Source: Dehalococcoidia bacterium (GTDB lineage: Bacteria > Chloroflexota > Dehalococcoidia > Lucifugimonadales > QGNO01). From it: a stretch of 64,000 bases of DNA. Made by a program: the position numbers and the translations under genes. The stretch lies in NCBI GenBank assembly GCA_965220545.1, contig CBDCQF010000009.1, positions 84,660-148,659 of the forward strand, in the 5' to 3' direction. A model generated the notes under the pieces. It made no database searches, had not been told where the DNA came from, and was given only the letters and a program-made list of their open reading frames with translations. The stretch's first letter is position 1; each line of letters starts with the position of its first letter. Positions 12,484-36,813 of the stretch are shown in pieces.

Positions 12484-12727
12484 CTCGTCATTGTGAGCGC
12501 AGCGAAGCAATCTGGCGGCGGCGCGGAAACATTGTAGGGGCGGTTCGCGAACCGCCCTGCTATCCACCACGTCTTGCCCGCGCAGGCGGGCACCAGGCGC
12601 GGCGCGGCGGGCACATTGTAGGGGCAACCCTCGTGGTTGCCCTAGCCTACCCCGCCTGCCCGTAAGCCCGCCCGCCACGCCAAGAACCCCTCCGCTCATG
12701 GTGAGCTTGTCGAACCATTTGAGCGGT
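12484..12727. repeat. Intergenic repeat mosaic (modules B, A, C, A-variant, D)
   Basis: gtcattgtgagcgcagcgaagcaatc; gtaggggcggttcgcgaaccgccc; cttgcccgcgcaggcgggcacc; ccgctcatggtgagcttgtcgaac; all recur elsewhere. Confidence 0.9.
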
Positions 12728-27416: not shown

Positions 27417-27849
27417 CCATTGCGAGAAACATTGTAGGGGCGGTTCGCGAACCGCCCCTGCTACCCCCACGTCTTGCCCGCGCAGGCGGGAACCCACGCA
27501 CGCACACCTCCCTACCGTCATTCCGTGCGCCACACTGTCATTCTGAGCGCAGCGAAGAATCTTCTACCACAACAAACTAGGTCCCTCTACCCGCAAACTC
27601 CGTCCGCCTTCACCCACCCCCAGTCACCATTGCGAGAAACATCGTGGGGCGGTTCGCGAACCGCCCTGCTACCCCCACGTCTTGCCCGCGCAGGCGGGCA
27701 TCCAGGGGTGGTGGGGTATAGACTCCCGCCTTCGCGGGAGTGACGACAATACGCACCCGCCCACACTGTCATTCTGAACGGAGCTCCGCGTAGTGAAGAA
27801 TCCAAAGCCTCCGTTGCCAGCCTGCCCGTTTGCCCGCATGTCACTCCCC
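27417..27849. repeat. Intergenic repeat mosaic including two copies of a ~75-bp A+C compound unit 210 bp apart, plus B, B, F modules
   Basis: ccattgcgagaaacat(t/c)gt(a)ggggcggttcgcgaaccgccc(c)tgctacccccacgtcttgcccgcgcaggcggg at 27417 and 27627; third copy near 12525. Confidence 0.9.
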
Positions 27850-28449
27850 CTACCGCAAGAACGGGTTGTTCCGCCTCTCATCCCCTATCGTCGATTCCCC
27901 GCCGTGGCCTGGCAACACCACCGTCTCGTCGGGCAGCGTCAGCAGCCGCGACTCGATGCTCGCCAGCAGCAGCGGCCCGTTCCCGCCGTCCAAGTCAAAG
28001 CGGCCGATGCTCCCCTTGAACAGCGTATCGCCGGTAAACACCGTCCCCTCGACGTAAAAGCACACCGATCCCGGCGTGTGGCCCGGCGTCTCCATCACCC
28101 TTAGTGTTGCTCCGCCAACACGCAGTTCATCGCCGTCGTTTAGAAAACCGTCGGGTGGTGGAGGCATCTGGTAGTCCGGTATCAACATCGGCGCCCACGA
28201 CGCGCTCGCCGCCATGACCCGCACGTCCGACTGGTGAATCCTGAACTCCGCGGACGTCCTCTCCTTGATCTCCTTTACCGCCCCGTTGTGGTCTCCGTGG
28301 CCGTGCGTATTCACCATCAGCGCCACACTCAGCCCGGCCTCTTCCACCTTATGCAGTATCAGGTCCGACTGTGCCCCGGGGTCGATCAGTATGCACTCCC
28401 CCGACTCCTCAGACCCCACGATATACGCGTTCTCCCGACATGGAGCCAA
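27850..28449 (-). CDS. MBL-fold metallo-hydrolase (glyoxalase-II/YcbL-like; persulfide dioxygenase not excluded)
   Basis: VNTHGHGDHNG, PGHTPGS, FTGDTLF.GSIGR.DL, PGHG motifs; TTG start; N-terminus is short for the family. Confidence 0.8.
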   Translation of the reverse strand: MAPCRENAYIVGSEESGECILIDPGAQSDLILHKVEEAGLSVALMVNTHGHGDHNGAVKEIKERTSAEFRIHQSDVRVMAASASWAPMLIPDYQMPPPPDGFLNDGDELRVGGATLRVMETPGHTPGSVCFYVEGTVFTGDTLFKGSIGRFDLDGGNGPLLLASIESRLLTLPDETVVLPGHGGESTIGDERRNNPFLR

Positions 28450-28675: not shown

Positions 28676-28716
28676 GTACACCTTCTATCTACCCGCAAAC
28701 TCCGTTCGTTGCCAGC

Positions 28717-28756
28717 CTGCCCGTTTGCCAGTATGTCCGTATGTCCGTATGTCCGT
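28717..28756. repeat. Octanucleotide array (ctgcccgt ttgccagt atgtccgt x3)
   Basis: Same 8-nt unit family as 19554-19705. Confidence 0.85.
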
Positions 28757-28765
28757 CCCCACCCC

Positions 28766-29587
28766 CTACCGCTCCAGCGGATACCCCTCCTCGTTGGCCC
28801 ACTCCGCAAACGACGCATCGTAGTTCGCCGCATTCTCATACCCTAGCAGCCTCAGGGTGAACACTCCGTGCGCCGCACGGATCCCCCCCTGTCAGTACGT
28901 GTACACCTGCTGCTCAGGCGTCACCCCCTTCTCCGACAGCATCGACCTGATCTCATCCGCAGGCCTGAATTCCCCCGACTCGACGTCCATCACGTCGCTC
29001 CATTCCAGGTGCGGCGCGCCCGGAATATGGCCTCTGTACTTGTTGCCCCGGCTGTTCTCCCCGCTGTACTCGTCCGCCGCTCTCGTATCCCAGATAACCG
29101 ACCCCTCTTTGCCGATAGCCGTCTTCAATTCATCGGCCTTCACAATCAGAGAAGGGTCCACTTTGGGCGTAAACCGCCTCGGCTCAGCGGTGCTCGGCCT
29201 ATCCGTCATGGCGTGGCCCTCAGCCAGCCACTTCCGCCATCCCCCGTTCAGCACCTTCACGTTCGTATGTCCGTAGTAGCTCAGCACCCACCACAGCCTC
29301 GCCGCGTATATCGAGTGCCTGCCGCTGTAGGCCACCACCAAAGTCTCGTCTCCAATGCCAAGGTTGCCCAGAAACTCAGACGCCTGCTCCGATGCCATCA
29401 CGTGCACGCTGCCGTCGCCCTTGATATAGTGGTTCTCTCCCAGGTTCACCGCACCCGGAATGTGCGCCCGGTTGTAAGCGTCCGGAAGATCGCAGTCCAC
29501 TATCACCATGTTGGCGTCGTCCAAATGCGACGCCAACCACCCCGTATCCACCAGCATCTCCGGATGAGCATAGCCAGTTGTACTCAC
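28766..29587 (-). CDS. Two-domain rhodanese (thiosulfate/3-mercaptopyruvate sulfurtransferase) with in-frame TGA at the catalytic Cys position (Sec candidate or nonsense pseudogene)
   Basis: GTG start at 29587 after GGAGGAG. Reading through TGA (28892-28894) gives YTY[TGA]QGGIRAAHGVFTLRLLGYENAANYDASFAEWAN, i.e. the canonical CxxGxR active-site loop and C-terminal helix, ending at TAG 28766. Confidence 0.7.
28865..28881 (-). promoter_or_regulatory. SECIS-like hairpin candidate 11 nt downstream of the in-frame UGA
   Basis: UCCGUGC-GGC-GCACGGA (7 bp, G-rich apical loop), extendable by GGGG/CCCU pairing. Confidence 0.4.
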
Positions 29588-29657
29588 GATAGGCTCCTCC
29601 CAGCTCAATTTGCCCCGAATCCTAGTGACCAGCCCATCCCCTGTCAACTTGAAACCG

Positions 29658-29790
29658 TCCGTCGTACCCGCACCCCCCCGTCGTACCCGCGAAGGCGGGT
29701 ACCCACTAACGGCGCGGAAACGTCGTAAAGGGGGTCGCGAACCGCCCTGGCCCCCCATCCCCACTTGCCCGTTTGCCCTCTACCCGTTAG
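29658..29790. repeat. Intergenic repeat mosaic (modules C, A-variant, F) in the divergent rhodanese/glyQS promoter region
   Basis: cgtcgtacccgcgaaggcgggtaccc; gggggtcgcgaaccgccc; cttgcccgtttgccctc. Confidence 0.85.
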
Positions 29791-31129: not shown

Positions 31130-31298
31130 CCCGCTCACCCTGAGCCTAGAGTTTACCCTGAGCACCGCCGAAGGGAAGGAAATGAGCGGCCCCCACCCCG
31201 TCTTTCCCGCGCTATCCCTTCCGTCGTTCCCGCGCAGGCGGGAACCCAGGGGCGGAGGGGAGTTTACCCTGAGCCTGCCGAAGGGTCATGCTGAGGAG
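31130..31298. repeat. Intergenic repeat mosaic (modules D, D, C, C, D)
   Basis: ccgctcaccctgagcctagagtttaccctgagcaccgccgaaggg; cgtcgttcccgcgcaggcgggaacccagg. Confidence 0.9.
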
Positions 31299-35363: not shown

Positions 35364-35522
35364 CACTGTAGGGGCGGTTCGCGAACCGCCCTCCCATCCG
35401 CTCCTCCCCCCACCCGCTCATGGTGAGCCTGTCGAACATTTGAGCGGGAATACACACACCGTCTTTCCCGCGCAGGCGGGAACCCAGGGATGGGGGTGCA
35501 ACCCCCTACCTCTTGCCCGTTC
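35364..35522. repeat. Intergenic repeat mosaic (modules A, D, C, F)
   Basis: gtaggggcggttcgcgaaccgccc; ccgctcatggtgagcctgtcgaac; cgtctttcccgcgcaggcgggaacccagg. Confidence 0.9.
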
Positions 35523-35538
35523 TGATAACATAACCCAA

Positions 35539-36270
35539 ATGCGACACCTAACGCGTCTAACCGAAAAGCAGCTCGGCGGCTGGTCCCTGCTCCTTGGAAC
35601 CGCCGCCGTCGCCGTCGGCTACGCCCTCTCCCCGGGCCGCGGCGTCATCGACACCGTACCCAGCACCAACCTCAACGACCTCACCCTCGCCATGGCCCGC
35701 AACGAGGTGCTGGCCTACACAGTGCCAATCGTCATCATCTGCGGCGCACTCCTCATGCTCAACGGCATCCTCACCCTGCGGCGCTACGCAGCCCCGCTGC
35801 CCCGGCTCGGCCTTCTCGCCATGGCCGTCGCCCTAGTCCTCCAGATGGTCATGCGGGGTTTCGACTACATGATCACCGGCATGGGAGTAGCCTCCCTGGA
35901 GACCAGCGACACCGTGAAATCGCAGGAATGGCTCCAATCCGCGCTGGAGATGCAGCGAATGGTGTGGGGGATGCACTTCACCTCCGGCGTCGCCGGCTAC
36001 GTCGGCCTAGCGGTCATGGCGATGGGCCTCGCCTTCCGGCCTGAGCCCGTGCGCCTGCCCCCTGCCCTGCACGGCGTCGTTGCCCTGCTCGCCGTCGCCT
36101 CGCTGGTCGTGTTCATCACCGCATGGCACTCCAACCGATTGGAGTTGGCCTTCGCCCCCGTCTTTGCCGCAATGTCCGTAGCCGGACTCGTCTACATGGT
36201 CCTACTGGGCTGGGGACTGACATCATCCAAAGACAACCAGCCAAGCAAACCCGAAATGGAATCCCCTTGA
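35539..36270 (+). CDS. Integral membrane protein, unknown function
   Basis: ATG at 35539 downstream of repeat DNA; ~6-7 hydrophobic helices. Confidence 0.6.
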   Translation: MRHLTRLTEKQLGGWSLLLGTAAVAVGYALSPGRGVIDTVPSTNLNDLTLAMARNEVLAYTVPIVIICGALLMLNGILTLRRYAAPLPRLGLLAMAVALVLQMVMRGFDYMITGMGVASLETSDTVKSQEWLQSALEMQRMVWGMHFTSGVAGYVGLAVMAMGLAFRPEPVRLPPALHGVVALLAVASLVVFITAWHSNRLELAFAPVFAAMSVAGLVYMVLLGWGLTSSKDNQPSKPEMESP

Positions 36271-36285: not shown

Positions 36286-36360
36286 TTGCATAACCTCTTC
36301 CCCCTCGACGGGGGAAGATTGAGATGGGGGTGCAAACTCCGTCCACCTGCCCGTCTGTGC
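36286..36360. repeat. Intergenic repeats (modules E, F)
   Basis: cataacctcttccccctcgacgggggaagattgagatgggggtg; ctccgtccacctgcccgtctg. Confidence 0.9.
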
Positions 36361-36447
36361 CAAAACCGACTCCACAACTGCCAAAAGGGTCCTCTCACAG
36401 CCCCAAGGGTCCGATACAATCCCCGGACCAAACCGCCGGAGGTTGCC

Positions 36448-36813
36448 ATGGGACTGGACGTCGGCATCATCGCCATTCAATACCTGCCCCGACCCACGGG
36501 TCACGCCTACGAGTTTGCCTGGGAGCTTGCCGCCGAGGCCGGCGCTTACGGCTATATGCATGGCGAGGGCAACAACTGGGGCGGATTCAGCCAGCGCCAG
36601 GTGCTCCGCATGCTCGACGAATTCACCGCAAGAGAGCAGCTCGACACCCCGGCGCGAACCGAGATCATCGACTGGCTGAGGTCACTCCCCTGGGACGACT
36701 GGCAAGACGACCTGCCCTTGCCCGCCGCCACCAACGACGATGACGAAGACCCCATCCTAGACCACGACCCTGACCAACACGGCGGCCTAATTGAGCTCCA
36801 TTTCAACTGGTAG
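36448..36813 (+). CDS. Acidic hypothetical protein (121 aa)
   Basis: ATG at 36448 after a GGAGG SD; host-like G+C; D/E-rich C-terminal third. Confidence 0.55.
   Translation: MGLDVGIIAIQYLPRPTGHAYEFAWELAAEAGAYGYMHGEGNNWGGFSQRQVLRMLDEFTAREQLDTPARTEIIDWLRSLPWDDWQDDLPLPAATNDDDEDPILDHDPDQHGGLIELHFNW

Follow-up and report, generated by a model that had tools for sequence, protein, structure and literature searches.

A two-domain rhodanese gene of Dehalococcoidia with UGA at the catalytic codon and a conserved downstream hairpin: a probable selenoprotein gene

The DNA analysed here, referred to below as the window, is a stretch of 64,000 nucleotides (nt) from contig CBDCQF010000009.1 of a Dehalococcoidia bacterium (assembly GCA_965220545.1). 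Its minus strand carries a gene for a rhodanese-type sulfurtransferase that is interrupted, at the codon expected to encode the catalytic cysteine, by an in-frame TGA (Table 1). The upstream part of the open reading frame (ORF) starts at a GTG (29587), ends in ...PEQQVYTY and meets the TGA at 28894-28892; 41 further codons follow in the same frame, QGGIRAAHGVFTLRLLGYENAANYDASFAEWANEEGYPLER, and are closed by TAG at 28768-28766. The original prediction had proposed from the sequence that this TGA stands for selenocysteine (Sec) at the catalytic position and is read through to the TAG. Sequence reading and alignment to solved rhodaneses agree with this placement: the TGA column is that of the catalytic Cys in Thermus 1UAR (yCriaeRs) and in Azotobacter RhdA, 1E0C (hCQTHHRS). 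Orthologues share the start site of the window gene (M-T/S-T-T-G-Y).

Table 1. Features of the rhodanese locus, in window coordinates.
Feature	Position	Strand	Remarks
Predicted Sec-rhodanese coding sequence	28766..29587	minus	GTG start, TAG stop, one in-frame UGA (Sec232); 273 amino acids (aa)
Shine-Dalgarno sequence GGAGGAG	29594..29600	minus	6 nt upstream of GTG 29587; read from the sequence
N-terminal rhodanese domain, aa 16-122	29222..29542	minus	Best stretch of PF00581; Ser replaces the active-site Cys
C-terminal catalytic rhodanese domain, about aa 163-271	28775..29101	minus	Alignment with domain 2 of 1UAR and 1E0C
UGA (predicted Sec) codon, catalytic position	28892..28894	minus	Alignment to the catalytic Cys of solved rhodaneses
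Predicted SECIS upper stem-loop UCCGUGC-GGC-GCACGGA	28865..28881	minus	Codons I236-G241; apical loop GGC at 28874-28872
Putative SECIS lower stem, CAGGGGGG with CACCCUG	28853..28891	minus	Minimum free energy folds; flanks the upper hairpin; weak support
Metallo-beta-lactamase (MBL)-fold hydrolase, 199 aa	27850..28449	minus	Downstream, same strand; similar to GloB and persulfide dioxygenases, below curated cut-offs

The read-through product has the two-domain architecture that had been anticipated for it. A Pfam search recognized two Rhodanese (PF00581) domains (E = 1.5e-36), and the full 273 residues align from end to end with the tandem rhodanese 1UAR (E = 6e-46). The loop of the N-terminal domain reads YSGRHS, with serine at the position equivalent to the active-site Cys, and to judge from its residues this domain is catalytically inactive, as is usual for it. 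In the C-terminal domain, the catalytic loop is U-Q-G-G-I-R, six residues with the nucleophile first. This organization, an inactive N-terminal domain followed by a catalytic domain with a six-residue loop counted from the nucleophile, is common to the tandem rhodaneses that use Cys (1UAR, RhdA 1E0C, Mycobacterium 3AAX/3HWI/3HZU and bovine 1RHD). The predicted Sec nucleophile distinguishes the window protein from them, as does the remainder of the loop, QGGIR as opposed to RIAER (1UAR), QTHHR (1E0C) or RKGVT, so that substrate preference is not transferable from these enzymes. Among curated families, no specific NCBIfam model passed its cut-off with the window rhodanese, and the 3-mercaptopyruvate sulfurtransferase equivalog NF008557 scored 121.7 bits, well short of its cut-off (250), which places the protein outside that family. 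With no curated equivalog reached and a QGGIR loop unlike those of characterized enzymes, a substrate specificity is not assignable.

We followed the catalytic codon through three sets of homologues: a GTDB scan with one genome per species, represented by its 80 best-matching loci (51-96% aa identity); a search of metagenomes that started from Cys-form homologues, yielding 79 loci; and the 120 best matches from a collection of 5.8 billion proteins. TGA occupies the catalytic codon in 79 of the 80 GTDB loci, followed in frame by Q(G/A)GIRAAHG, while the sole exception, locus L017 from SAR202-VI, has TGC. These 80 loci come mostly from metagenome-assembled genomes of Dehalococcoidia/SAR202, a few being labelled Methylomirabilota, Deltaproteobacteria or Proteobacteria. 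The metagenome loci are divided at the same column between TGA, again with QGGIRAAHG in frame after it (45/79), and TGC or TGT (34/79), which brings the totals to 125 TGA forms, the window included, and 35 TGC/TGT forms. TGA thus recurs in 124 independent assemblies besides this one, at aa identities as low as 44%, and in every one of them the frame beyond it stays open and its amino acids are conserved. The distribution at this column is that of the Sec/Cys pair suggested initially. Protein databases record the same situation in another form: for 53 of the 120 best matches, the called product is 221-244 aa long and cut off at this codon, all of them ending in ...(V/I)(Y/F/C)(T/A)(Y/H/Q).

Past the TGA, the residues G249, D257, S259, W263 and N265 are invariant in 80 sequences, yet are written with several synonymous codons, a signature of translation of the 41-codon tail under purifying selection at the amino-acid level. 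Sec and Cys forms are interleaved in a distance tree, in which the nearest neighbour of nine Cys forms is a Sec form. This topology is consistent with repeated Sec/Cys exchange, a process described for bacterial selenoproteins (PMC1794560). The base 3' of the UGA is C in every TGA form. On the 5' side, the preceding Tyr codon is TAT in 61 of 71 TGA forms, whereas other conserved Tyr columns favour TAC; the window gene itself, unlike this majority, has TAC (base 28895). The TAT-UGA-C pattern may reflect a preferred context of the Sec codon.

Downstream of the UGA, the transcript can form a hairpin whose sequence and coordinates (28865-28881) had been given correctly in the original prediction, except that it begins 10 nt past the UGA instead of 11; the spacing from UGA to loop is 17 nt. 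The published model of the bacterial selenocysteine insertion sequence (bSECIS) specifies an apical loop of 3-9 nt with a G in its first two positions, an upper stem of 4-16 bp, a UGA-to-loop distance of 16-37 nt and a minimum free energy (MFE) of -7.5 kcal/mol or lower (PMC13188914, Fig. 2 legend). The window hairpin falls within each of these limits, with its 3-nt GGC loop containing the required G, a 7-bp stem, a distance of 17 nt and -10.7 kcal/mol, and its position and size therefore fit bacterial SECIS elements as had been claimed. A GGGG/CCCU extension of the stem, proposed at the same time, does appear in MFE folds of the window and of several orthologues, but in differing registers and no better than in shuffled sequences; as the register shifts from one sequence to another, a column-wise test is not applicable and the lower stem is left as putative. 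An Rfam search matched nothing except tRNA-Pro. Like the bSECIS consensus used by bSECISearch, for which Escherichia coli fdhF is the prototype, the hairpin is a stem-loop of the coding sequence lying just 3' of the UGA. It differs from the fdhF element by its very small GGC triloop, its unrelated primary sequence and a stem built from the catalytic-loop codons themselves (I-R-A-A-H-G), an arrangement that makes RNA and protein constraints coincide.

Codon usage in the stem indicates that the RNA itself is constrained. In 80 TGA sequences, codons 239, 238, 237 and 235 have the lowest synonymous entropies among 77 conserved columns with four- or six-fold degeneracy (0-0.73 bit; median for the gene, 1.51). 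Arg237 is CGT in 74/80, when other Arg columns of the same genes use CGG or CGC. The string CGT GCG GCG CAC G is present exactly in all 115 TGA forms encoding R-A-A-H but in only one of 30 Cys forms with the same residues, the others varying freely among CGC/CGG, GCC/GCA and CAT (Fisher test, p ~1e-29, with no correction for phylogeny). Structures were compared over 121 distinct TGA sequences, 114 of the main type and seven divergent. As the original prediction had required of TGA-containing orthologues, the hairpin is conserved or compensated: its six core pairs are retained in 113-121 of the 121 sequences, and three compensatory changes occur, C-G to A-U in L131 and L158 (Ile ATC to ATA plus Gly to Val) and G-C to U-A in L070. 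RNAalifold applied to the 114 main-type sequences returned a 6-bp hairpin at -8.87 kcal/mol. Taken at the level of sequence comparison, these data show a hairpin maintained by selection acting on the RNA.

Two kinds of variant extend this picture. The main hairpin is lost in a subgroup of seven loci encoding RAANS or RAANG (L026, L033, L044, L062, L064, L069 and L074), and these carry a substitute, GGCGAACA-GUG-UGUUCGUC, located 8 nt further 3', some 20-40 nt after the TGA. The substitute also fits the bSECIS model (GUG loop, 8 bp, spacing of 25 nt, -8.1 kcal/mol), and in this subclade the SECIS has apparently moved within a single family of orthologues. Conversely, L089 (1700-1734), the single exception among the 30 Cys forms above, has TGC but keeps the exact SECIS sequence ATCCGTGCGGCGCACGGA. 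Its closest relatives in the tree are Sec forms, and it has probably changed from Sec to Cys recently, leaving a fossil SECIS behind.

From these observations, we propose that the locus is an intact selenoprotein gene encoding a two-domain sulfurtransferase of the rhodanese type, with U232 rather than Cys as the catalytic nucleophile, a reading of the sequence data to which we attach a probability of roughly 93%. Several results weigh against it. No tRNA-Sec was detected by ARAGORN, either in the window of 64 kb or in the 160 related loci with their flanks (about 1.7 Mb), and tblastn with approximate E. coli SelD and SelA queries gave no selA or selD match in the window or flanks, SelB not being probed. 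Taken alone, the window hairpin folds no better than shuffled sequences (z = -1.1 to -1.2), and since the single-sequence fold is not exceptional, only the comparative data give the hairpin its significance. Even there, the near-invariance of the stem leaves little covariation (3 cells, 2 pairs), and RNAalifold run on all 121 distinct TGA sequences gave no structure, because seven of them carry divergent hairpins.

If the gene is decoded as proposed, SelB-GTP-Sec-tRNASec would bind the hairpin, 14-30 nt on from the UGA and with its 7-bp stem and GGC loop, during translation, and SelB would deliver Sec to the UGA in competition with release factor 2, as in the bacterial Sec pathway. The enzyme would then follow the ping-pong mechanism of rhodaneses: the U232 selenolate would attack a sulfane-sulfur donor such as thiosulfate, a persulfide or 3-mercaptopyruvate, and the resulting Se-S intermediate would carry the sulfur until a thiophilic acceptor takes it over. 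Sec has a lower pKa than Cys and is more nucleophilic, which could make the enzyme more reactive than one with Cys. A different role can be envisaged for the same selenoprotein, that of a selenium carrier which, through a Se-Se or Se-S-bound intermediate, would feed selenophosphate synthesis instead of transferring sulfur. Such a role in selenophosphate synthesis has been shown in vitro for a Cys rhodanese; we consider it unlikely here.

Among explanations that dispense with Sec, the one that survives best is readthrough or recoding of the UGA by other means, whether by near-cognate Trp or Cys tRNAs, a suppressor tRNA or a lineage-wide reassignment, the hairpin then acting to slow termination. 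UGA followed by C terminates weakly in E. coli, and the invariant UGA-C context would suit such a mechanism, as would the failure to find Sec machinery in the window and in the flanks of related loci. Reassignment of the genetic code is nevertheless excluded by the ordinary use of TGA as a stop in the window, where it ends 14 of the 44 large ORFs, glyQS and the frdB-like gene among them, in line with what had been noted beforehand. Other forms of readthrough have to contend with a recoded codon confined to a redox-active Cys column, as is characteristic of Sec/Cys pairs, and with a hairpin that agrees with the bSECIS model down to the loop G and the spacing. Moreover, the family already figures among the listed selenoproteins, and tRNASec is known in Chloroflexi, some of which are described in the literature as decoding Sec and carrying an unusual 8/4 tRNASec, a type that ordinary programs for tRNA detection may overlook. 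We therefore give decoding without Sec little chance.

It is less probable still that the UGA is a true stop, leaving a 231-aa rhodanese devoid of its catalytic residue, with downstream conservation due to a small ORF or an RNA element. Inactive rhodanese domains do exist, the N-terminal domain of this very protein being an example, and the hairpin could in principle be regulatory. The 41 downstream codons, however, have no start codon of their own and complete the rhodanese fold, aligning up to residue 280 of 1UAR and including the conserved YD-S-W-EW helix; their synonymous variation and amino-acid conservation are in frame with the upstream part; and Cys-form orthologues, among them L017 with the same synteny, are single uninterrupted ORFs. 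Finally, a nonsense pseudogene, or a TGA produced from TGC or TGT by sequencing or assembly error, would take a single base change and would accord with the treatment of orthologues by gene callers and NCBI as truncated 231-242 aa 'sulfurtransferase' products, but with the same TGA and an intact, conserved frame recurring in all the other assemblies this is scarcely credible. It is the conservation of the TGA, together with purifying selection on the tail, that leads us to exclude pseudogene, sequencing error and true stop alike.

The proposed Sec-rhodanese has a published counterpart. The Sargasso Sea selenoproteome study of 2005 introduced a "Rhodanese-related sulfurtransferase", COG2897, as a selenoprotein family new at the time, documented by three sequences and a figure of the SECIS (PMC1088965, Table 1; Zhang, Fomenko & Gladyshev), which bears out the mention, in the original prediction, of such a family from marine metagenomes. 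The family is also listed in a 2026 review as UxxG, PF00581, rhodanese-like 'form 4' (PMC13188914). The UQGG motif in a COG2897-type protein implies that the window gene belongs to this UxxG family, membership being assigned by motif and COG and the representatives AACY01016424 and MCY3690685.1 being compared by description only. MCY3690685.1 was not among the cluster members looked up, of which the NCBI-sourced ones were MBI4200147.1 and MBM3926134.1. We see no difference of kind between the window gene and the Sargasso Sea family: both combine the same COG and Pfam assignments with one Sec at the catalytic Cys position in a U-x-x-G motif, a SECIS-like hairpin directly downstream with a G in its small apical loop, and an origin in marine or environmental uncultured bacteria. 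Single-domain Sec-rhodaneses of COG0607 (forms 1-3, including the CxU protein of NF041203, rhodanese_LYCAU) and the TsoB rhodanese/DsbD fusion share the fold and also have Sec in or near the active-site loop, but their architectures and motifs are different; NF041203 matched the window protein at 35 bits (cut-off 115), and on the N-terminal domain.

Current annotation does not reflect this family. The NCBI orthologue entries MBI4200147.1 and MBM3926134.1 are "sulfurtransferase" proteins of 233 and 242 aa that end at the UGA. As the orthologues are annotated in truncated form (231-242 aa), without their catalytic residue, metabolic reconstructions of SAR202/Dehalococcoidia carry a systematically wrong protein. 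Some features seen here may be unstated in published accounts of the family, namely the near-universal Sec form in Dehalococcoidia/SAR202, the catalytic-loop codons frozen by the SECIS, the relocated hairpin of one subclade and the fossil SECIS in a Cys revertant.

The rhodanese gene lies between a divergent glyQS and, on its other side, a 54-aa ORF, the MBL-fold hydrolase gene and an amidohydrolase gene. This local order is common to the closest relatives and to the Cys-form L017, which makes the window gene and L017 a syntenic Sec/Cys orthologue pair. An ordinary sulfur-metabolism neighbourhood had been expected, but the genes found are glyQS, the MBL-fold hydrolase and the amidohydrolase, and synteny is not family-wide: all-versus-all clustering of neighbours in 81 loci revealed no family-wide neighbour. 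At the level of subclades, recurrent neighbours are an acetyl-CoA-synthetase-like ligase (23 loci), a 198-aa hypothetical protein (18), a short-chain dehydrogenase/reductase (13) and glyQS (12). The MBL-fold hydrolase is downstream in about 11 of the 81 loci (including L001, L003, L005, L006, L007, L010, L012, L017, L037 and L077). Its best NCBIfam similarities are to GloB and to the sulfurtransferase/dioxygenase Blh, both below cut-off, and on this basis it may be a functional partner of the persulfide-dioxygenase type.

Elsewhere in the window, a six-frame scan for further selenoproteins with in-frame TGA produced 123 noisy candidates, none of them convincing beyond the codon at 28894. The same-frame pair 6151-7023/7039-7965 was considered as a TGA-split gene and rejected, these being two separate genes, ispH and a member of the inositol-monophosphatase family. 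The plus-strand ORFs 35440-36270 and 36286-36813 are likewise in the same frame, with TGA and 15 nt between them and no NCBIfam match, and are probably separate genes. Intergenic regions contain a modular family of GC-rich palindromic repeats (27427-27850, 28688-28756, 29665-29778 and 31208-31248, with further copies near 1105, 9146, 12541-12577, 16831, 22171, 35375-35467, 51955 and 54707). Examples are GGGGCGGTTCGCGAACCGCCCC and TTGCCCGCGCAGGCGGGAACCCA, the core of the latter, CCCGCGNAGGCGGG, being present in at least 12 copies. These repeats resemble elements of the REP/BIME type, and they generate long spurious ORFs with recurring peptide motifs. Directly past the rhodanese stop, a tandem array (28709-28756) consists of 3.2 copies of an 8-nt unit, GTATGTCC, nested in three copies of a 16-nt unit.

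The family was described in 2005, and nothing here alters the known picture of Sec decoding. The collected loci do provide a dataset for the evolution of SECIS elements, in which four states can be compared: an invariant element overlapping the active site, compensatory changes, a relocated hairpin and a fossil SECIS. Given its occurrence in 79 of the 80 best-matching species representatives, we read the predicted Sec form as the default state of this housekeeping sulfurtransferase in Dehalococcoidia/SAR202. These bacteria are among the most abundant of the deep ocean, and it appears that they rely on selenium for a sulfurtransferase that is widely conserved.

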